Source of the DNA: Candidatus Omnitrophota bacterium | GTDB taxonomy: Bacteria; Omnitrophota; Gorgyraeia; Zapsychrales; JAHFFX01 | Direction: 5' to 3' | Assembly: GCA_023247705.1 (NCBI GenBank) | Contig: JAHFFY010000006.1 | Span: forward strand, 6,623-70,622 | Length of the DNA: 64,000 nucleotides | Part shown: positions 24,427 to 45,950 of the stretch, piece by piece | How positions within the stretch are numbered: position 1 is the stretch's first letter | How the letters are laid out: every line of letters starts with the position of its first letter | Made by a program: the position numbers and the translations under genes | The notes under the pieces: model-generated | Seen by the model: the letters and a program-made list of their open reading frames with translations, nothing else | Told to the model about the DNA's origin: nothing | Database searches by the model: none

Positions 24427-25131
24427 ATGCGTCGAGATATTCTGGTTAGCGCGAGCATTCTTTGCGCTGATTTTCTACAATTAGACAAGGAAATAAAAAA
24501 AAGCGAGGCGGCCGGATGTGATATGCTCCATGTCGATGTGATGGATGGACATTTTGTCCCTAACATTACGATCGGCCAGGTGATCATTCAGGCCATTCGG
24601 CCTATAACGAAACTTCCTATTGAAGTGCATCTTATGATTGAGAATCCTTGGCTTTATATTGATTCGTTTATTGACGCAGGCGCGGATGTTATTTCTATCC
24701 ATGCTGAATGTTACGGGCAACGGAGAGTTTCTTGTCTGGATTTAGGGAAGTTTCCCAAGGAAGTTGATTCGATAAACTTGGAAAAGGCTAAAGCGGATAT
24801 ATTGAAAATTAAACAAATGGGGAAGAAGGCTTTTATGGCGGTTAATCCAGGAACGCCAATGTGTTTGGACCGTTTATTGAAAGATTTGGATGGTGTTTTA
24901 ATTATGTCGGTTAATCCGGGTTTTGTTAAACAAAAATTTATACCGGAGGTTTTATCTAAAGTTCAGGAAGTGAGGAAAAAGTTTTCAGGAGATATTGTCA
25001 TTGATGGCGGGATTAATGCTGTGACCGCCAAACCAGCGGTTAAAGCAGGGGCGAATATCCTTGTGACCGCCAGTTATTTCTTTTCGGCTGTCGATCCGCA
25101 AGGGGCGGTAAAAGTCTTGAAAGAAGGGTAG
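24427..25131 (+). CDS. rpe: Ribulose-phosphate 3-epimerase
   Basis: ILCADFLQLDKEIKKSEAAGCDMLHVDVMDGHFVPNITIG matches the Rpe signature. The protein is slightly long (234 aa) and has an insert. Confidence 0.85.
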   Translation: MRRDILVSASILCADFLQLDKEIKKSEAAGCDMLHVDVMDGHFVPNITIGQVIIQAIRPITKLPIEVHLMIENPWLYIDSFIDAGADVISIHAECYGQRRVSCLDLGKFPKEVDSINLEKAKADILKIKQMGKKAFMAVNPGTPMCLDRLLKDLDGVLIMSVNPGFVKQKFIPEVLSKVQEVRKKFSGDIVIDGGINAVTAKPAVKAGANILVTASYFFSAVDPQGAVKVLKEG

Positions 25132-25346: not shown

Positions 25347-28148
25347 ATGATTATTAAACCCACCAATTCTAAAAATCTGCGTAAAATTGGGCAAACAGCA
25401 ATAGAATATCTTTTATTATTATGTTTGGTCGCTGGTGTGGTCCTTGCCTCTTTTAACGCGTTAGTCCCTCGAGCACAAGTAGCATCCGGTCAATTTTATA
25501 ATAAAGCTGCAGAAAGTATTATGGGAGCTCCTCCGGTTATTCCTTGTATGGCTGATGGGACTTGTAGCGCCACACCACCTACTTCCTGCGGTTTGATCAA
25601 TAGCGGTTTTGACAATTGCGGTCGTATCTGTCAGATCGCGTCAAAACCCTGTTGTGCTCCCGTCGGCTGTCTTGCCGGTGATTGCGGCCTGAAGGATGAT
25701 GGGTGTGGAACACAGATTAACTGCGGTCCATGTTGTATGCCTGTTGGTTGTTTACCGGGAGAATGTGGACTCATACCTGATGATGGATGTGGTAATCCTA
25801 TTGATTGCGGTCCTTGTTGTCTTATTCCCAGTTGTTTACCTGGAGAGTGTGGGATGAAATTTAATCCATGTACCGGGGCTAATGATATTGATTGTGGGAT
25901 ATGTTGTTCTCCGAGTGGATGTTTACCAAGCGAGTGCGGTCTTAAAGATAATGGTTGTGGCGTACAGATCAATTGTGGGACATGTTGTGCTCCGGTTGGC
26001 TGCTTAACAGGTGAATGCGGGACTAAGGATGATGGTTGCGGGACGATTATCGATTGCGGCGCTTGTATTCCTCCTGGATGTGGCGCGACACCGGTTTTCA
26101 CCAATGCGACGGTTCAACTCGGAGGATCGAATCATGGAGATACGCGAGATGTCATATGTGATCCGGGTTATGTGGGGACATCCGTGACCATTATTTGTGA
26201 CGCAGGGACTTGGGTCGGAGCTGGACCAAGTTGTTTGAGTCCTAATGATTGTGCTGGAGGATCAATTCAGATCGGGATCGGGGTTACCGGAATATTTCCT
26301 CCTACGAGACATGGAGATACCGTTACATTCGTATGTCCAGCAGGGTTTACTGGAAGTCCGTGGATGCTGTGTATGTTTGGATCATGGCAGACCTTGATTG
26401 GTGCTTGTGATCCTATTCCATCTTCTTGCTCTGCGGGAGTTGTCCCCATCGGATCAGGTATTTTGGGTGCCGTCCCGGTCACAATACATAATGATACTGT
26501 TTCGTTTAATTGTCCAACAGGATATACAGGGAGTCCAACGGTAAGATGCAACAATGGAACTTGGGAAGTTGTCCTAGGGGCTTGTGATTTAATTCCGGCT
26601 GAGTGTCCGGCATTTGTTGTTTCTCTAGCAGGAGGAGGTACAGTGACTTTTCCTTCGACTCCTTCGGGCCAGACCGTAACAATGACTTGTCCAGCGGGAT
26701 ATCTAGGATCGTTATCCAGTAATTGTTTTTCTGGTTCTTGGAATCCTATTCTTGGAGCCTGTGATATTTCCTTTGCTGATTGTCCTGTATGGGTGATTGA
26801 TTTAGGAGGAGGAAAAACATTGACTTTTCCGTCTACGCCCCCAGGAAATACCGTCACGGTCAATTGCCCTATAGGGTTTAGTGGCGCTATGTCCAGCACC
26901 TGTAGCTTTGGCGTGTGGGGCAGTATTTTGGGAGGGTGTAATATTGCATTTCCGAATTGTCTTTCTTTTCTGGTTCCTATAGGCGGGGGAAATCAGGCAA
27001 CTTTCCCAGATACCCCTTCTGGTCAAACCGCCATCATTTTTTGTCCATCAGGGTTCTCTGGACAATTAACTAATATTTGTTTTGCTGGCGCTTGGGGGAT
27101 AACTTTAGGGTCATGCGCTCCGATTATCCCTGGTTCATGTTCTGGATTTACAGTTACCTTGTCAGGTGGAGAAACTGTGACCTTCCCAAACGCCATTGAC
27201 GGGCAGACTCTAACCGCCCCATGCCCTCCCAATTATAGCGGAACATTGTCCAATACTTGTAGTTTAGGATCGTGGGGGCCTATGGTGGGAGCGTGTACGC
27301 CTCTTCCCATTGATGGGGGTTGGTGTTGGAATTTGTGGGGGGACTGTTCTGCTGGTTGCGGTCTTCCGGGAACACAAACGCGAACGGTAATTGGTTGTAA
27401 TTGTCCGACTCCATCCAATGGTGGAGCGTTTTGTTCCGGCCCATCGACTGAGACACAGGCTTGTATAGGTTTATGTTCTGCCCCTGTAGATGGCGGATGG
27501 TGTTGGTCTAATTGGAGTACCTGCTCTGCGGGTTGTGGAGGAACAGGGACACAGACAAGAACAGCAACTGGTTGTGGATGTCCTGCTCCTGCTAATGGTG
27601 GAGCATCTTGTTCTGGTGCAACGTCTGAGACGCAGAGTTGCAGCACTCCTCCTTGTACTTGTACGGGTCCTGTTCCATCAAACGCAAATATTTGTTCGGG
27701 TGATGATATCGGACTGATGGTGGATACACCTTATTCCGTTGTGATGACGTGTGGCGCACCAAAATGTGAATACACTTGTAAGCCGGGTTTTATTCCGGAT
27801 GGTGCGACTTGTCGACTTCCGGGTTGCGTTGGCCCGATACCAGGAAATGCTACAATTTGTAGCGGAGATGATATTGGTGTGGCCGTAGATACTCCTAGAG
27901 TTATTGTTGGATTTTGTGGTCCAGTAAAATGTGAATATCTCTGCAATTCAGGTTTTGTTCCTTCCGGGACATCTTGTCGTATTCCTCAGTGTACCGGGGT
28001 CATCCCAAGTAATTCAAATTTATGTCCTGGAGACGATCTAGGTCTTCCATTCGATTCTCGCAATATTCTTGTTGGTGCCTGCGGCCCGGCAAAATGTGAA
28101 TATACATGTAAAGCAGGCTTTACTTTCAATGGAGCATCCTGTAATTAA
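25347..28148 (+). CDS. Large secreted Cys-rich protein with an Flp-pilin-type leader, tandem Cys repeats, Sushi/CCP-like modules and thrombospondin type-1 repeats
   Basis: The N-terminus (KIG/QTAIEYLLLLCLVAGVVLA) matches the class III prepilin motif G/xTAIEY. Five ~29-aa repeats of the form PCCxPxGCLxGECGxKDDGCGxxIDCG follow. About 7 modules have 4 Cys plus a conserved GxW (CPAGYxGSxxxxCxxGxWxxxxGAC). There are two WxxWxxCSAGCGxGTQTRT TSP1-like repeats and three C-terminal ~55-aa repeats. Confidence 0.75.
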   Translation: MIIKPTNSKNLRKIGQTAIEYLLLLCLVAGVVLASFNALVPRAQVASGQFYNKAAESIMGAPPVIPCMADGTCSATPPTSCGLINSGFDNCGRICQIASKPCCAPVGCLAGDCGLKDDGCGTQINCGPCCMPVGCLPGECGLIPDDGCGNPIDCGPCCLIPSCLPGECGMKFNPCTGANDIDCGICCSPSGCLPSECGLKDNGCGVQINCGTCCAPVGCLTGECGTKDDGCGTIIDCGACIPPGCGATPVFTNATVQLGGSNHGDTRDVICDPGYVGTSVTIICDAGTWVGAGPSCLSPNDCAGGSIQIGIGVTGIFPPTRHGDTVTFVCPAGFTGSPWMLCMFGSWQTLIGACDPIPSSCSAGVVPIGSGILGAVPVTIHNDTVSFNCPTGYTGSPTVRCNNGTWEVVLGACDLIPAECPAFVVSLAGGGTVTFPSTPSGQTVTMTCPAGYLGSLSSNCFSGSWNPILGACDISFADCPVWVIDLGGGKTLTFPSTPPGNTVTVNCPIGFSGAMSSTCSFGVWGSILGGCNIAFPNCLSFLVPIGGGNQATFPDTPSGQTAIIFCPSGFSGQLTNICFAGAWGITLGSCAPIIPGSCSGFTVTLSGGETVTFPNAIDGQTLTAPCPPNYSGTLSNTCSLGSWGPMVGACTPLPIDGGWCWNLWGDCSAGCGLPGTQTRTVIGCNCPTPSNGGAFCSGPSTETQACIGLCSAPVDGGWCWSNWSTCSAGCGGTGTQTRTATGCGCPAPANGGASCSGATSETQSCSTPPCTCTGPVPSNANICSGDDIGLMVDTPYSVVMTCGAPKCEYTCKPGFIPDGATCRLPGCVGPIPGNATICSGDDIGVAVDTPRVIVGFCGPVKCEYLCNSGFVPSGTSCRIPQCTGVIPSNSNLCPGDDLGLPFDSRNILVGACGPAKCEYTCKAGFTFNGASCN
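25647..26095 (+). repeat. Five tandem ~87-nt coding repeats (Cys-rich units)
   Basis: Read directly from the translation at aa ~101-240. Confidence 0.7.
27312..27660 (+). repeat. Two tandem TSP1-like coding repeats
   Basis: GGWCWNLWGDCSAGCGLPGTQTRT.. and GGWCWSNWSTCSAGCGGTGTQTRT.. are seen directly in the translation. Confidence 0.7.
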
Positions 28149-28191: not shown

Positions 28192-28749
28192 ATGTTAAGA
28201 TTTTTCGGAACCAAAAAGGATCAATATTTAATCTTTGATCTTTTCTTTTTTCTTGCCTTTCTCTTCCTCGTCATCATTCCAATGATTTATCTGGGTTTTA
28301 CAGGAAAACAAATCGATAAACTACCGCGATGTGTAAAATATCTTAATAGTACATTTAAGTTATTTCCAAATCGAATCCCTTTTTGGTCGATTGTTTACAT
28401 GCAGGTTCAACTTCAAAAGGATGGGTCATGGATGACTTTAGTTGATGATCATTATTTTCAAGCGCCGCCTTTTGGTTATCGTTTGAGAATAAACCGGTTT
28501 TTTGAATTATTTTGGAAAGGGTCAAAAGCCAAGAATGCTCAATTGGAATTAGCTTTATGGATCGGGCAACGTTTTGAGGAGATCAATCATGTGACTCCGT
28601 ATATGGTGCGTTTATTGGTCGCTCAATATCTCCCTCGGGAGGAATGCCCCATCGGTTATTGGCAGAAACCCACTTTAGAATCTTTTCCAAAAGACAAAAT
28701 TATATTATTGGCAAGTTTTTTTTACGACACTCATGGACAAGTTGAATAA
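28192..28749 (+). CDS. Hypothetical membrane-anchored protein (upstream partner of the HTTM gene)
   Basis: 185 aa with one N-terminal TM segment. Overlaps the next gene by 17 nt. Confidence 0.4.
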   Translation: MLRFFGTKKDQYLIFDLFFFLAFLFLVIIPMIYLGFTGKQIDKLPRCVKYLNSTFKLFPNRIPFWSIVYMQVQLQKDGSWMTLVDDHYFQAPPFGYRLRINRFFELFWKGSKAKNAQLELALWIGQRFEEINHVTPYMVRLLVAQYLPREECPIGYWQKPTLESFPKDKIILLASFFYDTHGQVE

Positions 28750-29653
28750 AATATTGGATGTTGTCCTTAAATTTTGTTTAGCTCCGAGTGATCCTATCAA
28801 GTTAGATTCTTTGAGACTGTCTTTAGGGATTACGTTAATTCTTTATTTTGCTAAGTGGTGGGAGCATGCTGGAGAATGGTTGACATCGTCAGGATATCAT
28901 GTTTCCGCCAAGGTGTATGAAAATGTGCCTATTCTTCCGCCTTTAAATCCGGAATTCTTGCCGTGGTTTGGCATTATTTTCTGGTGCAGTTTGATCCTTT
29001 GGACATTAGGTTGGAAGACCAAAATAACCAACTGGTTAGTTTTGGCAGGGGTATCCTATGTTACGTTCGTGGATGTTTTGATGGCTTATACGATTAATAA
29101 ATATTGTGTATTGGCATTAATTTGCATGAGTCTTGCTCCGGCAGGGGAATACTGGAGTATTTCTCCTAAGAAGTTTTCTCGCGGTCCCTCTGTTTGGCCT
29201 ATTCGGGTATTGCAGTCTTTTGTGATTGTGCAGTATTTTTTTGCCGGGTGGAATAAATGCTTTTTGGGAGGGGACTGGTTAAAATATCCAGATGTGTTGT
29301 GGTCTCAGGTGCAGGGATTTTATGTAACAGATTTTACGGCTTGGCTAATAAGCGTTATGCCTAAAGAAGGGTGGACCTTTATGCAGTACGACGCTTTAAG
29401 TTTTGAGCTTTTGTCGCCGTTTCTTTTTTTGATCAAACGATTACGGCCGATTGGATTTGTCTGGGGATTGGGGTTTCAAATCGTCGTGGCATCAACAATG
29501 CACATGTTAATTTATTTCAGTTTACAGATGCTGTGTTTTTATCTGCTTTTTTTCGATGATAAGACTCTGCATGAGATAAGATTTTTTATTCTTAAAACCT
29601 TCAAAGAAATTAAACAAGAATTATCTTATTCTTTCCGTTGGTTTCTGACATAG
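28733..29653 (+). CDS. HTTM-domain (vitamin K-dependent gamma-carboxylase-like) membrane protein, tentative
   Basis: The N-terminal motif DPIKLDSLRLSLGITLILYF resembles the HTTM signature D..SLA.FRI..G. There are 4-5 TM helices with conserved W/Y/P residues. Length is 306 aa. Confidence 0.45.
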   Translation: MDKLNKILDVVLKFCLAPSDPIKLDSLRLSLGITLILYFAKWWEHAGEWLTSSGYHVSAKVYENVPILPPLNPEFLPWFGIIFWCSLILWTLGWKTKITNWLVLAGVSYVTFVDVLMAYTINKYCVLALICMSLAPAGEYWSISPKKFSRGPSVWPIRVLQSFVIVQYFFAGWNKCFLGGDWLKYPDVLWSQVQGFYVTDFTAWLISVMPKEGWTFMQYDALSFELLSPFLFLIKRLRPIGFVWGLGFQIVVASTMHMLIYFSLQMLCFYLLFFDDKTLHEIRFFILKTFKEIKQELSYSFRWFLT

Positions 29654-30555
29654 GTGCTTTTCTCAATACTCTTGGCGTATTTCTTTAATTCGGCTCCGAT
29701 CTCGCTGATTTGAGCGACATGTGTAATTTTTTGTTTTGCGTTGCTCACGATTCCGATGGAGATGGAGAGAAGTCCAATCTTGATTTCGTTGCCTTGCCTG
29801 TCTTTTCCGGTAATATATCCGCTTTTTTTATCCTCTTCATTATAGAATTGAGGCGCCATCTTATCGAATTCTTCGATAATCTTTTGACAAATCGAATCCA
29901 TCAATTGATCTTCCACGATAAAAACAAAATCATCTCCTCCGATATGCCCAACGAAGGGATCATTTCCGCCTTTTTCTTTGGCCACATTAATAAGGATTCT
30001 GGCTGTCGCGCGGATGATTTCGTCCCCTTTTTCAAAACCGTATTTATCATTATAAATTTTAAATTTGTCGAGATCAGCGTAACCGACGGCGAAGGTTTGT
30101 CCCTTATTGATCCGGTGCTGAAGCTCTTCCATGATGGAGGTGTTGCCGGGAAGGTGAGTCAGGGGATTGGCATCAAGGCTGCGGACGGTTCTTCTTAGGA
30201 TCATGTGGATTCGGGCGAGTAATTCATCCGGTTCGAAAGGCTTCACCAGATAATCATCGGCGCCGGCTTCGATCCCGCCGACCATGTCTTTGACCTCTCC
30301 TTTGCCGGTTAACATGATGATCGGGATATGCCGCAAGAGAATATCTTTTTTCAGGGCTTTGCAAAATTCCGGGCCGGTCATGATGGGCATGACATAATCA
30401 CAAATAATGAGATCTGGATTTTTTTGTTGGGTCATCAAAAGCCCTTCTTTGCCGTTATACGCCTGGAAGACTTCGTAATTTTCGGACAGGGTTAGATGGA
30501 GGACATCCAGGATGTCCGGATCATCGTCGATAGTTAATATTTTTTCTTTATGCAT
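29626..30555 (-). CDS. Response regulator receiver domain fused to a GGDEF domain with a GGDDF variant motif
   Basis: REC domain has DDDPD and D at DYVMP. GGDEF-domain segments are YADLDKFKIYNDKYGFEKGDEII and HIGGDDFVFIVED. No RxxD I-site was seen. Confidence 0.8.
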   Translation of the reverse strand: MHKEKILTIDDDPDILDVLHLTLSENYEVFQAYNGKEGLLMTQQKNPDLIICDYVMPIMTGPEFCKALKKDILLRHIPIIMLTGKGEVKDMVGGIEAGADDYLVKPFEPDELLARIHMILRRTVRSLDANPLTHLPGNTSIMEELQHRINKGQTFAVGYADLDKFKIYNDKYGFEKGDEIIRATARILINVAKEKGGNDPFVGHIGGDDFVFIVEDQLMDSICQKIIEEFDKMAPQFYNEEDKKSGYITGKDRQGNEIKIGLLSISIGIVSNAKQKITHVAQISEIGAELKKYAKSIEKSTYVRNQRKE

Positions 30556-30598: not shown

Positions 30599-32116
30599 TT
30601 AAACTTTTTCTTTGGTTGATTCGGCGCTTATCTTTTCATCATTGTTGATGATTGGTAAAGAAAAGTAAAAGGTTGTGCCTTCGTTCACTTTGCTTGCCAC
30701 CCAAATTCTTCCATGATGAGCTTCGATAATATTTTTGGCCAAGGTCAATCCTAGACCGGTCCCTTTGACATTCTGATTGATCTCATTCTCGACGCGATAA
30801 AATTCGTTAAATAATTTTGGAAGATCTTCCTCTTTGATCCCTATCCCGGTGTCAGCCACCGAGAACACAATCATTTCTTTGCCTAATTCGGTTTTGATGG
30901 TGATCGTTCCGTTTAAGGGAGTAAATTTGATCGCGTTGTTGATGAGATTGATAAATACGCGTTCGATTTGACTGATATCGACAAAAATTTCGGGGGTATT
31001 TTTTGCGATGACCGTTTTCAGCTGAATATTTTTTTCCTTCATTTGAGGGGTTAATAGATCGCGGACGTTTTCAATGATTGAAGAAACGTTATGCTTAAGC
31101 AGCCGCATCTCAACCCGTCCGGATTCAATGCGCGCGATGTCCAAAAGATCGTTAATCATTTTGACGAGGTTATCGGAATGTTTGTTGATTTTTTCGAGGC
31201 GGTCTTTGACCTGAGGAGAGATCTCCCCCAGTTTACCGCTCATGAGGATGGACGCGTACCCTTTAACCGAGGTGAGGGGGGTGCGCAATTCGTGAGAAAC
31301 TGCCGAGATGAAATCGGATTTCATCTTGCTGACTTTTTTCACGTCTTCCAGCGCAATGGCCAATTGCTTTGTTCTGTCTTGGATCTTGGATTCCAGATCC
31401 TGGCGTGAACGGTAAACTTGTTCGAATAGCTGGGCGTTTTCCAGAGATTGCCCGATTTGATTGGCCAGGATCGAAAGCAATTCTTCGTCGCCTTCCGTGA
31501 TCGGGGAGGTGTGCGAGCGGTTCCCGATGAAAATAATCCCTATAATCCCTTCCTGCGTTAAGATCGGAGCCAGGATAAAATGTTCCACATCGAAAATACG
31601 GATGATTCTTTCTTTGATTTGTTTCGGAGAGTTTGAGGAGGAGAACGTATGTCCTTCTCGTAAAGATGAGTAGAGATTCGTATCCTTTTCTAAGTTGGAA
31701 AGGATATAAAGGATTTCTTCTTTGGAAAATCCGGACTCGATGCGGCAATGTAATTTTTTGTCGGCATCCAATATGACAATTAAATGTTTCTCAAAGCCAA
31801 GCTCGGACATAAGCGGCTGATCCAAACGCCGGAAAATTTCTTCTTCATCAAGGGTGGTGGAGATTAAGCGCGAGGTTTTTTGCAGCGTGTTGAGTCCGTT
31901 TAAACGTTTGTCGAGTTCTTCTTGAGCTTTGTTAAGTTCGAGATCGGTCTTGACGATGAGTTTCGCTTGTTCATCCAAATCGTTGAACGAACGTAGCATT
32001 TTGTTATGAGATTCTTTTAATTCTTTGATCTGGTCGATTTTTCCCAGCAGCATGAAGATGAGAATTCCGATCGACATAAAAAGGACAATGCCAATAATGT
32101 TAACAATATTTTCCAT
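30599..32116 (-). CDS. Sensor histidine kinase (TM, coiled coil, GAF, HisKA, HATPase)
   Basis: H-box HELRTPLTSVKGY. G-boxes GTGLGLTLAKNIIEAHHGRIWV. GAF-like end LANQIGQSLENAQLFEQV. Confidence 0.85.
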   Translation of the reverse strand: MENIVNIIGIVLFMSIGILIFMLLGKIDQIKELKESHNKMLRSFNDLDEQAKLIVKTDLELNKAQEELDKRLNGLNTLQKTSRLISTTLDEEEIFRRLDQPLMSELGFEKHLIVILDADKKLHCRIESGFSKEEILYILSNLEKDTNLYSSLREGHTFSSSNSPKQIKERIIRIFDVEHFILAPILTQEGIIGIIFIGNRSHTSPITEGDEELLSILANQIGQSLENAQLFEQVYRSRQDLESKIQDRTKQLAIALEDVKKVSKMKSDFISAVSHELRTPLTSVKGYASILMSGKLGEISPQVKDRLEKINKHSDNLVKMINDLLDIARIESGRVEMRLLKHNVSSIIENVRDLLTPQMKEKNIQLKTVIAKNTPEIFVDISQIERVFINLINNAIKFTPLNGTITIKTELGKEMIVFSVADTGIGIKEEDLPKLFNEFYRVENEINQNVKGTGLGLTLAKNIIEAHHGRIWVASKVNEGTTFYFSLPIINNDEKISAESTKEKV

Positions 32117-32132
32117 ATCAATTATTCTTTAT

Positions 32133-33323
32133 TTATCCAATGGCCAGAATAACGATACTTTCATTTTGTAAATGGGTTTTTTTGACGTGGTCACTTGGAT
32201 GAAAAGGCGAAATTTCACCGTAAGAATACATCCCCAACATGGGTATGTCTTTACCTAAAATTTCTTTAACCATTTGAATCTCTTGGAAGGCGTCCCGACC
32301 TAATAGTTTATGTCGAGTAAAACATTCAAAGATGAGCACTATTTGCGGTTTTTTACCTTGAAGCGATTCTTTGGCTTCGGTCGCAGCTTCCACAGCCGCT
32401 TGCATGCAAGAATCTTTATTGCCGATCATGATATGGGCATTCGCACCTTCGGGGACTTCACCCTGACATACAATACTCCCATCGTTTAAGATGTCAATAG
32501 CATTCCGCAATAAATATTCTGTTTCACCTTCGATATATATACCGAGAGGATACATAATAGCCATCCGGCTGCGCTGTTTGGATCGCCGATTATTCTGGAC
32601 TTCTTCTCCGAAATATTCTTCATAGATATTGCATGCTTTTTTTCCGTCGATCATTTTGATGATGTGTCCGTCCACTTTGTTGACAACCCTGGGACGCCCC
32701 AACGGCTTCCAGCCATGACGATTGGCTATTCCCAAATTCAGTTGTCCGCCGATCAATAAGCCGCCGGCACCGTTATACATTGCTTTGTCCTGATAATATT
32801 GATAGGTTCTTCTGAATTGAAAATCATCGCTGCTGCCAGCGCCGACAATGGGTAATATCGTCCCTAAAATTTCCTGAACGCCTTTGATCATGAGAGAGAG
32901 GTCTTTGAGCAATCCATCGGCAAAAAAGAGAAAACCCAGACGTTTATATTGACCAAGGGTCGTAAGCGCGCTCTTGGCCAAGTGGTTTCCGGCGGTCCTG
33001 GTGTCTTGACTCGAAATGTCATTGACCGATCCTATTCCAAATTTTAGTTCGTCAGAACTGATGGCGAGTACAGCTATCCCGCGCATTTGAATGCCAGAGG
33101 AGAGGATGATCCCCGCTGTTGAGCAACCGATTGTTTGAGGATCATCTAAGATGTTCTGAATCGTTCTTAACGCTTCGTTGGAATTATAGTGGATGGTATT
33201 AAAAACAATGGCGAGATCAATGGACTCTTGTTGCGTCTGCTGTTTGGCAATATAGGCGGCTTCTTGGGCCGCTCGTTGTGTGTCAGGATCTTGGCTATAA
33301 CCAATACCGATATGGGTTGGCAC
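32133..33323 (-). CDS. FIST-domain sensory protein, tentative
   Basis: Length (396 aa), its position upstream of the HK and GGDEF genes in the same operon, and FIST-N-like segments (DLAIVFNTIHYN..GCSTAGII). Confidence 0.45.
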   Translation of the reverse strand: MPTHIGIGYSQDPDTQRAAQEAAYIAKQQTQQESIDLAIVFNTIHYNSNEALRTIQNILDDPQTIGCSTAGIILSSGIQMRGIAVLAISSDELKFGIGSVNDISSQDTRTAGNHLAKSALTTLGQYKRLGFLFFADGLLKDLSLMIKGVQEILGTILPIVGAGSSDDFQFRRTYQYYQDKAMYNGAGGLLIGGQLNLGIANRHGWKPLGRPRVVNKVDGHIIKMIDGKKACNIYEEYFGEEVQNNRRSKQRSRMAIMYPLGIYIEGETEYLLRNAIDILNDGSIVCQGEVPEGANAHIMIGNKDSCMQAAVEAATEAKESLQGKKPQIVLIFECFTRHKLLGRDAFQEIQMVKEILGKDIPMLGMYSYGEISPFHPSDHVKKTHLQNESIVILAIG

Positions 33324-36256: not shown

Positions 36257-37588
36257 TTAAAATAGAATTTGTGCGAGACGCTTGAAATGTTTCCTGACCC
36301 ATTGCGGCCGGAAATAGTATTGGGTATAAGCATTAGAAGTTTTTTTCTCCAGGAATGCTTTGGAAAGCGTGTCATGATGCCAGACGAGATTGGAATAACT
36401 GAAATCTTCCCAGTCGATGTTTAATAGTTTGCTGCGATAATTATCAAAGACAATCGTCCCCGGCTGAGGAGTAAAGATGTGGAAGGTGGCAAACATTGAA
36501 TTGAGTTGTTTGGCGTAATTGATCGTATCCCGGACGCTTTGTTCGCTTTCATGGGAAAATCCGACGATATAATTAGTTTGAACGATGACCCCGGATTTTT
36601 CCAGAAGATTGATTTTGCGGAAGGCGTCTTCTTTCTTGTATCCCCGCCGCAGATTTTCTTTCAAGAGTGCGTCATTGCTGCTTTCGATGCCCGTGATGAT
36701 GTAGCGCAATCCCGCTTTTGCCATCAAGGGAAGGTCTTCGTCTTTAAACGTGTCTAGCCGCGCTTCACAGCTCCAGTTGATTTTTAAATTCTTGGCGATG
36801 AGTTTTTCCATGAAGACATGAAAGTCTTTGCGGTTCTCACCGAAGTTCGGATCACGAAACATGAAGTAGCGGATGTGATGTTGATTGTAATAATGGTCAA
36901 TGGTTTTAAGAACATAGTCGCTGTCGAATTGCCGGGCCTTGCCGTAAAACGCGGCGTAGGGACAATAGTTGCAGGTCATGCTGCAGCCGCGGGATTTCTG
37001 GATGCTGATCCCGAGTTCTTTGGAAAACGGCCGTTTGGCGTAATATCCGTTGCGGATAAACGGAGACCAGTCGATCATGGGAAGTTCGTTTAAGTTTTCC
37101 GGGCTGCTGGAACGAATAATTTTTTCCGCCGGAAATCCCTTCTGGAAGATGCCCTGCATCGCTGTCTCGGGATCTCCGGTAATAATACAGTCCGCGACAT
37201 TCTGATAGATCTCCGGCATCGCGGAGGCGAACGACCCAACGACGACTACTTTGATTTGCGCTAGAGCGGTTTTCAAAGCCTTGATAAAACTAACTTCATT
37301 GCGATAATCGACCATGCTGCTTAGAACAATGGCGATTTGAGTATTGGTTTGAATATCCTGGGCGTGGGAGGTGTGATAAGCGGTCGTTTCGTGATGATGC
37401 TGATGACAGACCCCAGCGAGCTGAGCGAGAATAATCGGCGGGGCGCTGAAAAAAGAGTTGAGGGACCGGTTCAACAGCGTTCCTATAAAATTGTTTCCCA
37501 GGCGGATGCGCTTGCCGAGACCGCCGGCCATTTCTTTGGCGATGTAATCGTTTTGGTTGGGCTTGACTTCGATTAAAGCGATATGCAT
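36257..37588 (-). CDS. B12-binding domain radical SAM protein
   Basis: Radical SAM motif CSMTCNYCPY (CxxxCxxC) follows an N-terminal cobalamin-binding-like domain. Confidence 0.8.
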   Translation of the reverse strand: MHIALIEVKPNQNDYIAKEMAGGLGKRIRLGNNFIGTLLNRSLNSFFSAPPIILAQLAGVCHQHHHETTAYHTSHAQDIQTNTQIAIVLSSMVDYRNEVSFIKALKTALAQIKVVVVGSFASAMPEIYQNVADCIITGDPETAMQGIFQKGFPAEKIIRSSSPENLNELPMIDWSPFIRNGYYAKRPFSKELGISIQKSRGCSMTCNYCPYAAFYGKARQFDSDYVLKTIDHYYNQHHIRYFMFRDPNFGENRKDFHVFMEKLIAKNLKINWSCEARLDTFKDEDLPLMAKAGLRYIITGIESSNDALLKENLRRGYKKEDAFRKINLLEKSGVIVQTNYIVGFSHESEQSVRDTINYAKQLNSMFATFHIFTPQPGTIVFDNYRSKLLNIDWEDFSYSNLVWHHDTLSKAFLEKKTSNAYTQYYFRPQWVRKHFKRLAQILF

Positions 37589-37714
37589 GTTTTCGTTTTC
37601 GGGTTGCGGGTTGGCGAGTTTGACGGGTTAGGGTTCTTGACATCTTTACCGTCATTGACGGTAGCTATGAACCCGCCGAGTTCGGTAATCCGTTAAACTC
37701 ATCTTTCTAGAAAT

Positions 37715-39505
37715 CTAAACGGTATCCAAGATTCCTTTCGGAACTAAGTTTTCCTTTGTTACATCTTTAGATTTTACTTTGCGAAACCGTTCCCGGATAA
37801 TCCTTAAACAAAACCGCGTTCCGTCTTTGATGACTGATGATTTTACTTTGCCGCTTAACCGCGCGCGTTCTCTGGATGGAATCTCAGAGATCTGACGATT
37901 CAAACGCAGTGTGTTGACCAGTAGTTCGATTTCGATTTCATATCCATCGGCGTTGTATTCAAAGGCGTGATAAACGTCGCGGTGGAAAACTTTAAAACCA
38001 TTCAGCGCATCTGACAGATATCTTCCGTGTAAAAACCCGAAAAGCCAAGTCAAAACAATATTCCCGAACGCCCGCACCCGCGTGTATTCCTGGCTTCCGC
38101 CGATAATCCGGGAGGCGATGACCAATCCGTTATGTCTTTTGATCTCATCGACCATGGCACAGAGATCAGAGGCATCGTGGGAAAAGTCCGCGTCCATCAT
38201 CACCAGAAATCTTCCCGAGGCGATATCAAACCCCGATCGCAGGGCCGCTCCTTTGCCAGGATCGTTTTTGTTGTCGATCACTTTGACGAACGGATAACGT
38301 TGGGCGATGGCGGCTGTTTTGTCGCTGGAACGGTCATTGACCACAATCACTTCATAAGAATAAGGGGAGATGTCCATAAACAATCCGACTTCATCTAGTA
38401 CCGAGGCGATATTGGTTTCTTCATTCTTGGCCGGGATCACAATGGAGACATCGCATTGGCTTTTGCTTTGGTTTTGTTTTTGGTTCACGTAAAAAATATT
38501 GTCGCGATTGCGGTTAACCCAATCGCTCAATTTTTTAACGCCTTCTTCGGGGGCGATCCGCGGCTGCCAGTTCAAAAGCTGTTGGATTTTTTGGATGTTG
38601 GAAATATAAACTTTTTGATCTTTCATCCGCCAGTCCTGGTAATCAATTTTGAGCGGCGGATTGCTTTGCTTATTGAGTATTTTGACTAATTCATTCAGCG
38701 ATAACGTATTGGCCGGGCCGCCTCCGATATTAAAAGCCTGGCCTTTAATGCGATCGATGTTCAGGAGAGCTTTTTCATATAAATCAATCAGATCATCGAT
38801 GTATAAAACATCCCGGACCTGGTTGCCGTCTCCAAAAATCGTCAAAGGTTTTTCGAGCAACGAACAAATCGTAAACCACGCGACCCACCCCTGGTCTTCC
38901 ATCCCGTATTGATGTGGTCCGTAAATACAGGACTGACGGAACACGACGGTCGGGATCCCGTAGGTTTTATGGTAGTCCAGAAAATACTGGTCCGCGGCGC
39001 CTTTCGAACAGCCGTAAGGGGTTTCGAAGTTCAGTTGATTCTCTTCTGAAAATCCATCGGAATCCTTGATCGCGTAACGGCCGTTTTGCAGGTTGATTTG
39101 TTCATCGGTGTTTCCATAAACTTTATTGGTCGAGGCGTAAAGGATCGTGGGCTTATTCTGGCTGTGACGGGCGAGTTCCAGGAGATTAAACGAACCCTGC
39201 AGGTTCGCGCGGAAATCGCGCACCGGATTTTTGATGGACAGGGTCACGGCCACTTGTGCCGCCATATGCAGGACAATGTCGGGCTTGCAGGAAAAAAATA
39301 TTTCGCGGAAATCTTTGAAATAACTGATGTCGATATTTGAGAATTCGATCTTTGATTTTTTAGCCTGCTTGAGATTGGCGTCGACCCCAACGCGGCTGCA
39401 ATCATCAATGATGTGAACATGATTGGTTTTGGCAAAATGGCATGCGGCGTTAAAGCCGATAAAACCCAAACCACCGGTAATGAGGATTTTCTTATCTTTA
39501 ATCAT
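37715..39505 (-). CDS. Fusion of an NAD-dependent sugar epimerase/dehydratase (N-terminal) with a family-2 glycosyltransferase (C-terminal, DPM/GtrB-like)
   Basis: N-terminal Rossmann ILITGGLGFIGFN and SDR-type YxxxK. C-terminal GT2 motifs VSIVIPAKNEE, VIVVNDRSSD and MMDADFSHD. Confidence 0.7.
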   Translation of the reverse strand: MIKDKKILITGGLGFIGFNAACHFAKTNHVHIIDDCSRVGVDANLKQAKKSKIEFSNIDISYFKDFREIFFSCKPDIVLHMAAQVAVTLSIKNPVRDFRANLQGSFNLLELARHSQNKPTILYASTNKVYGNTDEQINLQNGRYAIKDSDGFSEENQLNFETPYGCSKGAADQYFLDYHKTYGIPTVVFRQSCIYGPHQYGMEDQGWVAWFTICSLLEKPLTIFGDGNQVRDVLYIDDLIDLYEKALLNIDRIKGQAFNIGGGPANTLSLNELVKILNKQSNPPLKIDYQDWRMKDQKVYISNIQKIQQLLNWQPRIAPEEGVKKLSDWVNRNRDNIFYVNQKQNQSKSQCDVSIVIPAKNEETNIASVLDEVGLFMDISPYSYEVIVVNDRSSDKTAAIAQRYPFVKVIDNKNDPGKGAALRSGFDIASGRFLVMMDADFSHDASDLCAMVDEIKRHNGLVIASRIIGGSQEYTRVRAFGNIVLTWLFGFLHGRYLSDALNGFKVFHRDVYHAFEYNADGYEIEIELLVNTLRLNRQISEIPSRERARLSGKVKSSVIKDGTRFCLRIIRERFRKVKSKDVTKENLVPKGILDTV

Positions 39506-39709
39506 TCCTTATGTATTATATTTATTTTTCTTCTTTGTGACAGGAAATTATTATTATTGAGCGATTCTTTGCTCAGGTTAAAGAGAAGCTCCATAAAGGC
39601 TGAAAAAAGATCTTTCCTATTATCCGGCTTAATGGTATTTTAATAAAAAATCGTCATCCGGGATTTCAGCAAGATCAGAGGGATATCCATAAACACTTCA
39701 AAAGAGCAT

Positions 39710-40762
39710 ATGATGGTTAATGTCGGGCTTATTGGATGCGGATATTGGGGACCGAATCTTTTAAGAAATTTTTTAGAACTTTCCAATTGTCAGATTAAAG
39801 CGATCGCTGAATTGGATGATTCCCGTATCGACTATCTTAATCAAAAGTTTCCTTCCCTTCCAACAACCAAAGACTATCGTGATCTCATGAATGGTTCGAT
39901 TGACGCCGTTGTCATTGCGACCCAACCTCGAACACATTATTCACTCGCCAAGGAAGCTTTACAAAATAAAAAACATGTGTTGGTCGAAAAACCGTTAGCG
40001 ATGAGTGTGGCCCAGGCCCGCGAGCTGATCGAATTGGCCAACAAACACCAGCGCAAACTCATGGTCGGACATACGTTCGAATACAGCGAGCCGGTCAGGC
40101 TTTTGAAAAAATATATGCACTCCGAGGAAATCGGACGGCTGTATTATCTTTATTCCCAGCGCGTCAATTTCGGTATTGTCCGTCAGGATGTGAATGCCCT
40201 TTGGAACTTAGCACCGCATGATATTTCGATCATCCTGTATCTATTGGAAAAAATGCCGGTTATGGTTTCCGCCAAGGGAGTCGATTTCTTGCAGAAAGGG
40301 ATCGAAGATATCGTTTTTATGGTTTTGCATTTTCCCGACGATGTGATCGCGCATGTGCATGTCAGCTGGCTGGACCCCAATAAAGTCCGCCGGATGACGC
40401 TGGTGGGCAGCGAGAAGATGATTGTTTACGATGATGTCAGCGATGCTAAAATCAAAATCTATGACAAAGGGATCAAAAAACAGAACATCACCGAATCGCT
40501 GGGGCGTTATGATGATTTTGGACAATATCAGTCGATCAAATTCGCCGGCGATGTGATTTTACCCAAGATCGATTTGGTGGAACCCTTGAAGAACGAATGC
40601 GCGCATTTCATCGAGTGTATTCAGCAGGACAAAGATCTTTTGACCGGTGGTGATAACGGATTGCGGGTTGTTCATGTTTTGGAAGCGGCCTCCCGGTCGA
40701 TGCGTCAGGACGGGAAAAATGTGGCTATTGAACCGCTCGAAACTTTTGTGACGGCAGAATAG
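39710..40762 (+). CDS. Gfo/Idh/MocA-family NAD(P)-dependent oxidoreductase (sugar dehydrogenase)
   Basis: VGLIGCGYWGPN Rossmann N-terminus and family-typical C-domain. Confidence 0.8.
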   Translation: MMVNVGLIGCGYWGPNLLRNFLELSNCQIKAIAELDDSRIDYLNQKFPSLPTTKDYRDLMNGSIDAVVIATQPRTHYSLAKEALQNKKHVLVEKPLAMSVAQARELIELANKHQRKLMVGHTFEYSEPVRLLKKYMHSEEIGRLYYLYSQRVNFGIVRQDVNALWNLAPHDISIILYLLEKMPVMVSAKGVDFLQKGIEDIVFMVLHFPDDVIAHVHVSWLDPNKVRRMTLVGSEKMIVYDDVSDAKIKIYDKGIKKQNITESLGRYDDFGQYQSIKFAGDVILPKIDLVEPLKNECAHFIECIQQDKDLLTGGDNGLRVVHVLEAASRSMRQDGKNVAIEPLETFVTAE

Positions 40763-40797
40763 GTTTTTCATCCTTTTTTTATGAGCGAAAGTCTACG

Positions 40798-41949
40798 ATG
40801 AAAACAAATAAAATTCCCTTAGTCGACTTAAAAAGACAATATCAATCGATCGAACAGGAAATGATGGCGGCAATCAAAAATGTCCTGGACGAAACTTCGT
40901 TTATTCTCGGGGAGCCGGTTGCGTGTTTTGAAAAATCATTTGCCGGTCTCTGCGGTGTCGCCTCCGGTATCGGAACAAGCTCCGGGACGACCGCGCTGCA
41001 TTTGGCTTTAGTTGCCCTCGGGATCGTCCCGGGCGATGAAGTGATAACGGTCGCCAATACGTTCATCGCAACGAGTGAAGCTATTTCCCAGACAGGTGCG
41101 AAGGTCGTTTTTGTCGATATCGATGAGAAGACTTATAATCTGGATATTTCTAAATTGGAAGAGAAAATCACCGCGCGAACGAAAGCGATCATTCCCGTTC
41201 ATCTTTTCGGTCAAAGCGCGGACATGGAGGCGATCATGCAAATCGCCCGAACAAAAAATTTAAAAGTGATCGAAGACGCCTCCCAGGCGCATCTGGCCGA
41301 GTTTAAAGGAAAACGCGTGGGGAGTTTTGGCGACGCCGCGTGTTTTAGTTTTTATCCGGGGAAAAATCTCGGCGCTTACGGCGATGCCGGGATCGTTGTC
41401 ACCAATCATCAGACATTAGCGCAGAAAATGCGGATTTTATCCAACCACGGGAGAATCAATAAATACGAGCATCTGGTGGAAGGTTACAATTATCGACTGG
41501 ATACGCTGCAAGCCGCCGTTTTGAATGTCAAACTGAAATATTTGGACCAGTGGACGCAGAAGAGGCGCCAGATCGCTCATCTCTATGATATCTTGCTGAA
41601 AGACGCCGCGGTCAAGACCCCTTTCGTTGATGAACGCGCCAGACATGTTTATCATTTGTATGTGATCCGCCTTGCCGATCGTTTGCGTCTTGAAAAAATT
41701 TTGACAGAACACGGCATCGCAACGGGCGTGCATTATCCCGTTCCGCTTCATTTACAGAAGGCCTACCAATATCTCGGTTACAAAAAAGGTGATCTTCCGG
41801 TCACCGAACGATGCGCCGACGAAATTTTATCGCTCCCGATCTTTCCCGAACTGACCAATGAAGAAATTAATACGATCGGCCATGTGATCCGCCGGGAATT
41901 AAAACATAAGCGAGACGAATCCCTGGAGAGGGTCGCCCAGAATGTATAG
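40798..41949 (+). CDS. DegT/DnrJ/EryC1/StrS-family PLP-dependent sugar aminotransferase
   Basis: Family-typical motifs including SFYPGKNLGAYGDAG (PLP-Lys). Confidence 0.85.
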   Translation: MKTNKIPLVDLKRQYQSIEQEMMAAIKNVLDETSFILGEPVACFEKSFAGLCGVASGIGTSSGTTALHLALVALGIVPGDEVITVANTFIATSEAISQTGAKVVFVDIDEKTYNLDISKLEEKITARTKAIIPVHLFGQSADMEAIMQIARTKNLKVIEDASQAHLAEFKGKRVGSFGDAACFSFYPGKNLGAYGDAGIVVTNHQTLAQKMRILSNHGRINKYEHLVEGYNYRLDTLQAAVLNVKLKYLDQWTQKRRQIAHLYDILLKDAAVKTPFVDERARHVYHLYVIRLADRLRLEKILTEHGIATGVHYPVPLHLQKAYQYLGYKKGDLPVTERCADEILSLPIFPELTNEEINTIGHVIRRELKHKRDESLERVAQNV

Positions 41950-42886
41950 AACAAAGAAAGTCAGTCTGGTTATTCCTGCCTATAATGAGTCCAAATTAAT
42001 TAAACCGACCTTACAGCATGTGCCGGAGTGTATCGATAAAATTTATGTCGTTGACGACGCCTCAACCGATCAGATGGAAAAGGTTGTCCGTGATTTGGCC
42101 CAGAGCGATCGACGGATAACTCTGATCCGGCATGAAACAAACATGGGGCCCGGCCAGGCGATCATCACCGGTTATCTCAAATCATCGCATGAGGGATATG
42201 ATATCGCCGTGGTGGTGGGCGGTGATTACCAAATGCCGCTCGATGAAGTCGACCGATTTCTGGATCCTTTGGTCGACGGCAAAGCGGATTACACCAAAGG
42301 CAACCGGTTTTTATTGTGGGATATCACGCGTGAGAAAATGCCCAGGATCCGCATCCTGGGAAATGTGATCATCACCGCTTTGACCAAGATCGCTTCGGGT
42401 TATTATAAGATTATGGATGTCGTCGACGGATATACCGCCATCACTAAGGAAGCAATCGATCGGATCGATTGGAACAGGGCCTGGAAAAAATATGGGTATC
42501 CGATGGATTTTTTGATCCGGCTCAACGCTTATGGTTTTCGCGTTAAAGATGTTGCGCGCACGGCCATTTATCTCAAAGGAGAACGCCAGTCGCAGATCAA
42601 GGGATTGCGTTACGCGCTGAAAGTGTCGCCGATGTTGATCCGCGGATTTTTCTGGCGGATGCTTTTCCGGTATGTTTATCTGGATTTTCATCCGCTGGTC
42701 TTTTTCTTTTTTTGCGGGATGATCCTTTTGCCACTGGGGTTGCTGTTCGGGATCTTTTTGATTTTTCAGGCGGTGGCCGGCGTTGGAGTCTCCGGTCCGC
42801 GAGCGATTGTGTGCGCGTTGGCGATTATTACAGGTTTACAATTTTTATTGTTCGGGATGTGGTTTGATATGGAAGCAAGCAAGTGA
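41942..42886 (+). CDS. GT2 polyprenyl-phosphate sugar transferase (GtrB/ArnC-like) with a C-terminal TM pair
   Basis: VSLVIPAYNE and VDDASTDQ near the N-terminus. Two C-terminal TM helices. Confidence 0.7.
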   Translation: MYRTKKVSLVIPAYNESKLIKPTLQHVPECIDKIYVVDDASTDQMEKVVRDLAQSDRRITLIRHETNMGPGQAIITGYLKSSHEGYDIAVVVGGDYQMPLDEVDRFLDPLVDGKADYTKGNRFLLWDITREKMPRIRILGNVIITALTKIASGYYKIMDVVDGYTAITKEAIDRIDWNRAWKKYGYPMDFLIRLNAYGFRVKDVARTAIYLKGERQSQIKGLRYALKVSPMLIRGFFWRMLFRYVYLDFHPLVFFFFCGMILLPLGLLFGIFLIFQAVAGVGVSGPRAIVCALAIITGLQFLLFGMWFDMEASK

Positions 42887-44694
42887 TGATCCGGAGATCG
42901 AGGGAATCCGCGACGTCCTTGATCACCTGGGTGACCAGATCACCATTATTTATGAAGACAGTAGAATATTGGGAACAGCTTAGCGGGTCGAAAAAGTTAG
43001 AACCGATCTCACCGCCAGTGAGGTCGGCGCCAAAGATTTTGGGCGCCTTGAAACACCTTTGCGCGCTTGCGGTCGTTTCGTTTTTTCTTATCTATAATTT
43101 TTTTGCGGTTGGTAAATATTCCGCTTATCCCTGGTGGCACCAGCACGGCAACGACGTCGACGGTACTTACGCGGGAACAACCGTGGCCCTCTTAAACAAT
43201 GGACCGTTGCTTTATATCCATCATCCGGGAGGGATGGTCTATTCGATCCATGGGACCGTTTACCGGTTTCTGGCTTTTTTTAATGACGCTTATTACCGGT
43301 TAATGCATCTGCGTGAGGTCAGGAATTATAATCAGGCCGTTGAAATTTTGGATCTCGCCGTCCACGCCAGCCGTATTATTACCCTTTTTATTGGGATTGG
43401 ATTTTTGATTGTGTTTTACGCGGTCATTTACCGGCTGACGCGGCGTTTGTCGGTGGCGTTTTTGTTAACGTTTTTTCTGGGAACATCCAAGGCCTTTGTG
43501 CAACATACGTACATGATCAGGCCGGAGGTGCCGAATTTATTATTTTTCCTGGCGGGGCTTTGTTGGACTTTGGTTCAACGGCAACGGAAGAAATTGTCGT
43601 TTCGGGATCTTGGGTGGTCAAGCGTACCCATCGGAATTTTTTTAGTATTTTCTATCTTATCGAAGATCCAGATCGGCCCCGGGGTCGCGATTTATTTTGT
43701 GCTGATGATGTGCTTTCTCTTGTGGGGGCAACAGGATTTTTTGGGGAAACTCAGACAGGAATATTTTTATTATGGTTTTGTTTTGTCTTTGATCAATTTT
43801 TTGGCGATGCCGTGGTGGGCGCTGAAGCGACCGGGATTTTTAACGCCGGAATATGTGCACGCGTTGCATCCGGCCTCGGATGACCGCAAGGTTTATGGGG
43901 CAGCACCGGAAAATTTTTTTGCCCCGATTTTGATTCTCTGTGGTTTGATGTGTATCGTCTCAGGGGTTTTATGGATGAAAAAAGAAAAGGTCATTGAAAA
44001 CGTTTTGTTGAAAAAGATCTCTTCGATGGTTTTATTTTTTAATATGGTGATCTCCGGGGGCATCCTCGCGGTGTATTTAATTTTTTTGCCTGTATCCGCA
44101 ACCTTGACGCAGTATATGGAAAACACCCGGCATCTGGTTTACGCGACACTGACCAATGTAACGTACGGGGGATTTTTGGTCAACCGGGTGATCAATTTGG
44201 GAACGCTGAAGAAAATCTGGACGATGCACGCGGGGCAAAGTCAGTTGGCCGGAATAAATTTTTTATATGTCGCGATCGGCGTTTTTATCGCGGCGACGGC
44301 ACGCTTATTCTTAAAATCGACGACGAACAAAGGCCAATACGGGATCATCCTGGTTATTTTGGGCTTGGGACTGATGATGGATGTTTTGGCCTCGATGCGC
44401 TGGCAGGTTTTGTATGTTTACTACGCGTTCTATTCTTTGACTTTTCTGACCTTAAGCGTAGGATGGTGGATGGCGTTAGAATGGCAAAATAAGCGGGATT
44501 GGATTTCTTTTGTTAAGTTTGGAGTTCTGGTTTTGTTCGCAGCAAATGTTTTCGTCGGTGGATGGGCTTTGCTGGCCCAGCCCAAAGCCAGCGGGGTCAG
44601 TCATCAAAATCCGTTGGAAGAATATCAAACGACGCGCAGTCTGGGGGCTTCGTTCTGGAAGGTCGTGGATGAAAGTATAAAAGGTATTAATTAA
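42883..44694 (+). CDS. GT-C-fold polytopic membrane glycosyltransferase (ArnT/GtrC-like), tentative
   Basis: At least 12 TM helices. The first external loop contains HQHGNDVDGTYAG (DxD-like). Gene order is aminotransferase, GT2, then this membrane protein. Confidence 0.5.
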   Translation: MMIRRSRESATSLITWVTRSPLFMKTVEYWEQLSGSKKLEPISPPVRSAPKILGALKHLCALAVVSFFLIYNFFAVGKYSAYPWWHQHGNDVDGTYAGTTVALLNNGPLLYIHHPGGMVYSIHGTVYRFLAFFNDAYYRLMHLREVRNYNQAVEILDLAVHASRIITLFIGIGFLIVFYAVIYRLTRRLSVAFLLTFFLGTSKAFVQHTYMIRPEVPNLLFFLAGLCWTLVQRQRKKLSFRDLGWSSVPIGIFLVFSILSKIQIGPGVAIYFVLMMCFLLWGQQDFLGKLRQEYFYYGFVLSLINFLAMPWWALKRPGFLTPEYVHALHPASDDRKVYGAAPENFFAPILILCGLMCIVSGVLWMKKEKVIENVLLKKISSMVLFFNMVISGGILAVYLIFLPVSATLTQYMENTRHLVYATLTNVTYGGFLVNRVINLGTLKKIWTMHAGQSQLAGINFLYVAIGVFIAATARLFLKSTTNKGQYGIILVILGLGLMMDVLASMRWQVLYVYYAFYSLTFLTLSVGWWMALEWQNKRDWISFVKFGVLVLFAANVFVGGWALLAQPKASGVSHQNPLEEYQTTRSLGASFWKVVDESIKGIN

Positions 44695-44793
44695 AAATTT
44701 CAAATCACAAATAAATTCCAAAATACAAACATCCTATTTAAAAATCGGTCTTTGGGATTTAGACATTGTGAATTGTTTGTGTTTTAAAAAATT

Positions 44794-45936: not shown

Positions 45937-45950
45937 AAGAGAGTCTTACG

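Follow-up and report, generated by a model that had tools for sequence, protein, structure and literature searches.

A large Omnitrophota protein joins a Flp-type pilin module to Sushi- and thrombospondin-type arrays and is a candidate Tad pilus adhesin

Why should a bacterial gene begin like a pilin and continue as a string of modules known from animal extracellular proteins? The question is raised by a locus of Candidatus Omnitrophota (GenBank assembly GCA_023247705.1, contig JAHFFY010000006.1), from which we analysed the 64,000 nucleotides between positions 6,623 and 70,622 (hereafter the window, by whose numbering all window coordinates are given). The CTP synthase of this bacterium shares 81–85% identity with its counterparts in Omnitrophota and PVC metagenome-assembled genomes. 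The gene occupies 25347..28148 on the plus strand, stop codon included, starts with ATG and encodes a 933-aa protein that contains 99 Cys (10.6%), 15.3% Gly and 9.4% Pro, with Thr and Ser also abundant. We propose, with a probability of roughly 60%, that this protein is a modular pilin of the Flp/Tad class (type IVc), presented by a Tad pilus as an adhesin. A pilin module (a 15-aa leader followed by QTAIEY and a hydrophobic helix; the mature module has about 47 aa) would be joined through a Pro-rich linker to ∼870 aa of grafted, bead-like and probably disulphide-bonded modules, i.e. five to six short Cys-rich repeats (A), seven Sushi or complement control protein (CCP) modules (B), two thrombospondin type-1 repeats (TSRs) and three Sushi-like modules (C).

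The N-terminus reads MIIKPTNSKNLRKIG/QTAIEYLLLLCLVAGVVLASF (i.e. KIG/QTAIEYLLLLCLVAGVVLASF). Its first 15 residues (MIIKPTNSKNLRKIG; 25347..25391, on the plus strand like all parts of this gene) form a predicted leader peptide that is basic and ends in Gly, and aa 16–62 (25392..25532) form a Flp-type pilin module in which QTAIEY and ∼22 hydrophobic residues, with Glu at +5 and Tyr at +6, are followed by LVPR..GQFYNKAAESIMG and the start of a Pro-rich linker (APP). This layout agrees with that of a class III signal peptide (i.e. a basic leader ending in Gly, Glu +5, Tyr +6 and ∼20 hydrophobic residues), and the leader motif occurs only once in a six-frame translation of the whole window. A preliminary description of this DNA had already proposed a Flp-type leader, and homology now extends that proposal well beyond the motif. 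Among 5.8 billion sequences, residues 1–66 match a stand-alone protein of 72 aa (P0008) and a fragment with Flp_Fap and Class_IIIsignal domains (P0007) at E ∼2.5e-8, and homology to stand-alone pilins of 56–76 aa spans the first ∼62 aa (E 2.4e-8). A metagenome scan with the pilin module recovers 28 loci. Conserved across the alignment of the family are [GA]/QTAIEY, the hydrophobic helix and a second stretch (..LLPR..G.FYNK..GIMG), after which a Pro-rich end follows. Glu +5 and Tyr +6 are invariant in 25 of 25 members, 23 of which match the Pfam model Class_IIIsignal (best E 1.9e-6) and 16 of which match Flp_Fap (best E 5.7e-6).

The best solved-structure matches of the family profile are mature Tad pilins from cryo-electron microscopy filaments, i.e. 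8u1k (PilA) and 8u2b (Flp). Because TAIEY aligns with mature positions 2–6 of both, cleavage is predicted at G15/Q16. Neither the Pfam model N_methyl (IPR012902, G/FTLxE) nor TadE, TadF or TadG matches the 933-aa protein, and a marginal TadF match occurs in only 2 of 25 family N-termini. Judged by sequence, the N-terminal ∼62 aa are thus a conserved Flp-type pilin module and not a motif alone. The predicted mature protein of ∼918 aa lies outside the size range of Flp pilins (about 40–90 aa), while its positional orthologues of 56–76 aa lie inside it.

These orthologues occupy a conserved genomic slot. The order rpe → pilin → ←response regulator-GGDEF←histidine kinase←FIST is found in at least 22 metagenomic loci, with flanking genes 42–83% identical to those of the window. 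In the window, Pfam and synteny identify the flanks as rpe (ribulose-phosphate 3-epimerase, 24427..25131, plus strand) upstream and, on the minus strand, a convergent PleD-like response regulator-diguanylate cyclase (REC + GGDEF, 29626..30555), a histidine kinase (N-terminal transmembrane helix, GAF, HisKA and HATPase_c, 30599..32116) and a cytoplasmic FIST sensor-domain protein (32133..33323). In 19 loci the gene immediately before the pilin gene is an rpe orthologue (49–68% identical), and in at least 22 a GGDEF orthologue (66–83% identical) adjoins the pilin gene. The kinase has a single transmembrane helix (aa ∼7–25) and essentially no periplasmic part, which fits the intramembrane-sensing type.

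What varies in the slot is the pilin's C-terminus. Bare versions have 56–93 aa, versions with one reduced TSR-like unit 104–177 aa and versions with unrelated Cys-rich segments 133–257 aa. One orthologue (L095:1353-3206, plus strand) has 617 aa with 92 Cys and a C-terminal intein/Hint domain (Intein_splicing 36.6 bits, cut-off 35.8), a hint that the extension is processed or released by autoproteolysis. The 933-aa protein is the largest version, all others having 56–617 aa. The extensions are mostly non-homologous to one another, and all start right after the ..GIMG-PP junction: in the 933-aa protein the pilin module ends with ..IMG and continues with APPVIP, exactly where bare orthologues stop and extensions begin. 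The loci with the closest flanks (L096, L098 and L099; GGDEF 81–83% identical) carry only pilins of 113–117 aa. By slot synteny and in view of these small versions, the 933-aa protein and the small Flp-like pilins are positional orthologues, and their C-terminus is a hot spot where modules are grafted.

The extension in the 933-aa protein starts with a linker and a first Cys-rich stretch (aa 63–101, five Cys, 25533..25649), which from its sequence is possibly a degenerate A-like unit. It is followed by five tandem A repeats (aa 102–240, 25650..26066; CCxPxGCLxGECGxxxDGCGxxIDCGx) with six Cys each, a spacing of CC-x4-C-x4-C-x6/7-C-x5-C and pairwise identities of 44–78%. Their number was given correctly in the preliminary description, while the uniform length of 29 aa stated there has to be widened to 27–29 aa. 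The A repeats match no Pfam model, their profile matches no solved structure, and their only relatives are three lipoprotein-like metagenome proteins, P0002, P0004 and P0005 (E ∼1e-12). Two large members of the pilin family (L094:8298-9923 and L086:10001-14233) carry many copies of a different Cys-rich unit (CGDGxCxxxExxxxCxxDCGxC), which is non-homologous to the A repeat.

The seven B modules (aa 241–656, 26067..27314) are ∼59 aa long and 26–54% identical, with a spacing of C-x27-C-x11-C-x11-C. They show the features expected of Sushi modules: four Cys, an invariant Trp between Cys3 and Cys4, and G-[YF] after Cys2. Against the Protein Data Bank (PDB), the B-module profile finds only CCP/Sushi proteins, namely CR2 (E 2e-15), FXIII-B, vaccinia VCP, factor H, beta2-GPI, the GABA-B sushi domain and CSMD1, in addition to one adhesion G-protein-coupled receptor; the full 933-aa protein likewise matches complement receptor 1 (CR1, E 1.4e-15) and factor H among the sequences of solved structures. 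The Pfam model Sushi (PF00084) does not match the 933-aa protein, and HRM does (38.1 bits, cut-off 26.2). The HRM domain has a Sushi-like fold, so this match is in line with a Sushi identity of the B modules. Moreover, Sushi itself matches relatives with a B-type module (P0088 with 99.9 bits, P0148, P0038 and P0112), and HRM reaches up to 155 bits in such relatives. An AlphaFold2 model of B1–B3 (predicted local distance difference test score 86.8) has the CCP fold, and the top 50 Foldseek matches of this model in the PDB are all CCP arrays (E down to 3e-6, probability about 1.0). From profile, model and fold comparison, which all agree with the roughly seven Sushi/CCP modules counted at the outset, the B modules are genuine Sushi/CCP modules.

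The two TSRs (aa 657–771, 27315..27659) are 64% identical and of a variant type that has an additional Cys pair (GGWCW...GCxCPxP; WCWxxW). Pfam TSP_1 matches two stretches (27.7 bits, cut-off 21.6), and TSR2–3 of thrombospondin-1 (3r6b) matches across both repeats (E 5e-17), with UNC5B and properdin also matched. On this sequence evidence, aa 656–771 are thrombospondin type-1 repeats, as previously read by eye. The best TSR matches include SCO-spondin-like proteins of amphioxus and mussel (50–56% identity), and the extra-Cys-pair variant is also present in the bacterial relatives P0007 and P0038.

The three C modules (aa 772–933, 27660..28145; ∼55 aa and six Cys each) end with KCEYxC..GF...G..C and are 50–60% identical. 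The preliminary description had listed these repeats without recognizing their likeness to Sushi modules. Since their profile matches only CCP proteins among solved structures, they appear to be a divergent Sushi-like variant. C modules are common among Omnitrophota surface proteins, and modules of the 933-aa protein recur in further proteins of bacteria, among them Omnitrophota and Ca. Magasanikbacteria.

Is the combination as a whole found elsewhere? A word-indexed homologue search with the full protein gave only three matches, and an exhaustive HMMER search of 1.84 billion representative proteins was used instead. In that search, TSP1 and Sushi modules occur in a minority of prokaryote-like proteins, and the exact module architecture of the 933-aa protein is unique; only P0038 (1410 aa) has the same leader type together with three of the module types (i.e. 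TSR, Sushi and C). The earlier impression of an undescribed architecture is therefore borne out. NCBIfam has no match to the protein. TSP1 and Sushi are generally treated as adhesion domains of the animal lineage (PMC3417536). In the metagenome data, P0027 (1392 aa), a true type IV pilin with N_methyl, the GFTLVE motif and a PulG-like head, carries 16 Pfam TSP_1 repeats, and P0003 and P0006 (892–897 aa) are related ‘PulG pseudopilins’ with four-Cys modules and a TSR. This suggests that TSR arrays are also carried by pilins of the type IVa/type II secretion system (T4a/T2SS) class in uncultured bacteria.

The leader family is linked to Tad systems by its genomic surroundings. The P0038 gene sits inside a full Tad cluster, which consists, in order, of a Rotamase peptidyl-prolyl isomerase, RcpC, the RcpA secretin, a TadZ-TadA fusion, DUF192, a 640-aa protein, six small pilins (53–139 aa), proteins of 438 and 1084 aa, P0038, and then TadB and TadC. 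Nine consecutive pilin-like genes in this cluster all have leaders of the [GA]/Q(V)xxxE type. Conservation of this cluster type in Omnitrophota has been described (bioRxiv 10.1101/2023.11.21.568195), and a wide distribution of Tad systems within the phylum has also been reported (PMC10066038). Among the 28 family loci, Tad genes adjoin the pilin gene in four (L094, L105, L111 and L117); in L094, a 541-aa family member with 112 Cys lies just upstream of RcpC-RcpA-TadZ/A. In L105 (6366-10156), TadA-, TadB- and TadC-like genes lie immediately upstream of a pilin with a QTAIEYLL motif. This locus is apparently archaeal, from a by-eye reading of GatD/GatE-like open reading frames, which fits the resemblance of the leader to archaeal class III signals.

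Taken together, these features suggest the following path for the 933-aa protein. Its N-terminal helix would insert into the inner membrane, and the Cys-rich part would fold oxidatively in the periplasm. A prepilin peptidase would cut after G15, as the motif and the alignment to solved mature Flp pilins suggest, and a Tad machine with genes in another part of the genome would load the protein into a pilus, most likely as a low-abundance or tip subunit given its size. Judging from modular pilins and from the Tad ‘Tip’ minor pilins, the ∼50-nm string of modules could then serve outside the cell as an adhesin that holds on to the surface of a host, a prey cell or a particle. More speculatively, by analogy with PilA-PleC-PleD of Caulobacter, the kinase of the slot may read the membrane pool of the pilin helix and so couple contact to cyclic di-GMP (c-di-GMP).

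Several observations weigh against display on a Tad pilus. The fully annotated 64-kb window contains no Tad or type IV pilus genes. Pfam finds no A24 prepilin peptidase in the window or in the Tad loci of relatives, and a search for the GxGDxK motif in the membrane open reading frames of all fetched loci gives none either. Because the window and the fetched loci thus yield no such peptidase, and the window no Tad gene, we only infer that the leader is cleaved. Tad genes are also absent from most slot loci, and the pilin gene is strictly paired with the response regulator-GGDEF, histidine kinase and FIST genes in at least 22 loci. These last observations suit another role, in which the protein is a pilin-like co-receptor that stays in the inner membrane, binds a ligand with its variable Cys-rich ectodomain, signals through its helix to the adjacent kinase and cyclase, and is rarely or never polymerized. 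Such a role would also suit a kinase with one transmembrane helix and no periplasmic sensor domain, and there is a precedent in Caulobacter, where the transmembrane helix of PilA binds TM1 of PleC (PMC7196804). However, in a diderm cell the ectodomain of an inner-membrane protein would be confined to the periplasm, where TSR and CCP modules have no obvious target. The periplasmic part of the helix (..FYNK..GIMG) is kept beyond the membrane span, which suggests filament packing constraints; P0038, with a similar module kit, is encoded within a Tad operon; and the pilin and signalling genes are convergent and not co-transcribed. We therefore consider a non-polymerizing co-receptor unlikely, although it is the alternative that survives best.

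A second group of adverse observations concerns the leader. Of the three Pfam domains expected from the preliminary description, TSP_1 alone is matched in the 933-aa protein: besides Sushi, Flp_Fap (PF04964) has no match, and Class_IIIsignal (PF04021) reaches only 11–15 bits against a cut-off of 23.7. Omnitrophota proteins that have an ordinary signal peptide, such as P0012, also carry B, C and TSR modules. The N-terminus could thus be a signal anchor or Sec signal that resembles a Flp leader by chance, and the protein, with no relation to pili, either a matrix or S-layer protein or a conventional adhesin that is secreted or sits on the outer surface. Against this, the homology to stand-alone pilins (E ∼1e-8) covers ∼62 aa and so exceeds the hydrophobic stretch, the family with its invariant E+5 and Y+6 matches Flp_Fap, Class_IIIsignal and solved Flp pilins, and the same leader type recurs on the nine consecutive genes of the Tad cluster. 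A chance resemblance is, in our view, quite improbable.

The remaining alternative, an artefact in which a metazoan fragment was mis-assembled into a bacterial contig or an animal gene was transferred very recently, is drawn from the amphioxus- and mussel-like TSRs and from a GC content of 0.49 within the gene, and we regard it as extremely improbable because the gene is one uninterrupted open reading frame that opens with a bacterial pilin module, at least 22 bacterial loci share the slot synteny, and the modules, including the extra-Cys-pair TSR, are found in other bacterial proteins. An identical copy of the protein is present in two independent assemblies, on a 75-kb contig at NCBI and on one of 23 kb at ENA, and ordinary bacterial genes lie on both sides, which together argue that the gene is not an assembly chimera. 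Eukaryotic contamination was rejected on the same grounds of synteny, duplicate assembly and bacterial relatives. The GC value was measured at 26001..28000, against 0.38–0.40 in the adjacent 2-kb windows, and probably reflects the Gly/Pro/Ala/Cys-rich composition of the protein.

We then compared the proposed modular Flp/Tad pilin with known systems. One close parallel is provided by the modular type IV pilins, exemplified by PilB (with a vWA module) and PilC (with a lectin module) of Streptococcus sanguinis (Raynaud et al. 2021, PMC8179133). In the parts of that survey drawn on here, multi-repeat examples reach 860 aa, with 12 repeats in a Ca. Falkowbacteria protein, and the shared plan is a small pilin module at the N-terminus, which has a class III signal peptide and Glu +5, then a short linker and adhesion modules. 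In the same parts, modular pilins are defined by IPR012902/N_methyl and belong to the T4a/T2SS class, whereas the 933-aa protein has a Flp/Tad leader (G/QTAIEY). Its pilin module has no globular head, unlike those surveyed, and it carries 17–18 added modules of four types, of which Sushi and TSR go unmentioned in these survey passages (PMC8179133).

Classic Flp/Fap Tad pilins (e.g. Caulobacter PilA and Pseudomonas aeruginosa Flp) share with the 933-aa protein a leader ending in Gly or Ala, TAIEY with Glu +5 and Tyr +6, and a hydrophobic helix of ∼20 residues; they also share the association of the leader family, seen here in relatives, with RcpC/RcpA/TadZ-A/TadB/TadC clusters. However, they are 40–60 aa long when mature, compared with ∼918 aa here, and the 933-aa protein has Gln at +1 and is encoded in a separate slot outside a Tad cluster. 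The KilL, KilM and KilN Tad ‘Tip’ pilins of Myxococcus (Herrou et al. 2025, PMC12075869) provide a functional parallel in that variable domains on pilin-like carriers set the target range, in a predatory or host-dependent setting like that proposed for Omnitrophota. They differ in being TadE/F/G-like heterotrimers with beta-stranded heads, whereas the 933-aa protein has a helix-only, Flp-like carrier and a string of eukaryote-type disulphide modules.

The slot resembles the PilA-PleC-PleD system of Caulobacter (PMC7196804) in combining a Flp-type pilin with a REC-GGDEF cyclase and a histidine kinase of the membrane, and the genes for these three are linked in at least 22 loci. PleC has two transmembrane helices and a periplasmic domain, whereas the slot kinase has one helix and a GAF domain, and the slot additionally conserves the FIST protein. 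As for the modules, Sushi/CCP and TSP1 beads on a string are also the plan of metazoan proteins such as complement regulators, properdin, thrombospondin and SCO-spondin, and of TRAP-type adhesins of apicomplexans. Differences from the metazoan proteins include the bacterial host, the pilin anchor, TSRs with an extra disulphide pair and a shortened Trp ladder, B modules with GYxG in place of GYxLxG, and A and C modules that are lineage-specific. Our literature search found no published description of Flp-class pilins with Sushi/TSR-type arrays, nor of the conserved slot.

Two genes separate the 933-aa gene from the convergent signalling genes in the window. The first (28192..28749, plus strand) starts 43 nt after the 933-aa gene and encodes a 185-aa protein with no Pfam match; the second (28733..29653, plus strand) overlaps it by 17 nt and encodes a 306-aa HTTM membrane protein (PF05090, vitamin-K-dependent-carboxylase-like). 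None of the at least 22 syntenic loci contains homologues of either, so the pair appears to be a window-specific insertion, and a functional link of the pair to the pilin family was dropped because it is absent from all other slot loci. Elsewhere in the window, an ECF-type sigma factor gene is followed by one for a zf-HC2 anti-sigma-like protein of 910 aa that contains vWF_A, VWA and YfbK_C domains (2349..5655, plus strand), and a long glycan/lipid-modification cluster (36257..58257) encodes two B12-binding radical SAM enzymes, a DegT aminotransferase, GT2 enzymes, a PMT-like mannosyltransferase, asparagine synthase, LPG_synthase_TM, E1/E2 2-oxoacid dehydrogenase components and a PPTase.

If our assignment is correct, the modular-pilin principle, which in the survey passages cited here is catalogued only for the T4a/T2SS class (PMC8179133), extends to the Flp/Tad class. 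Flp/Tad pilins are normally the smallest pilins known, and the 933-aa protein would represent an extreme with about 17 grafted modules. Positional orthologues that range from a bare pilin to 933 aa pinpoint the grafting site after the ..GIMG-PP junction.

The invariant pairing of the slot pilin with a PleD-like c-di-GMP system also leads to the hypothesis of pilin-based surface sensing outside Caulobacter. A tentative and rather doubtful extension of this hypothesis is that the slot is a conserved contact-sensing device of Omnitrophota, in which a lineage-specific, swappable cassette sets the recognized surface and the kinase reads the pool of pilin helix to set c-di-GMP. The cassette would then exist in several states, namely nothing, one TSR, Cys-knots, an intein-tipped array or 17 Sushi/TSR-type modules, and extension, retraction or ligand engagement would alter the membrane pool of the helix. 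If so, a host-dependent nanobacterium would have a sensor built on a pilus, and the animal-type CCP/TSR arrays would be the heads with which this sensor recognizes its target. More generally, the presence of animal-type modules on a putative pilus subunit of uncultured, host-dependent bacteria bears on how Omnitrophota may attach to their partners and on the evolutionary reach of the modules themselves.

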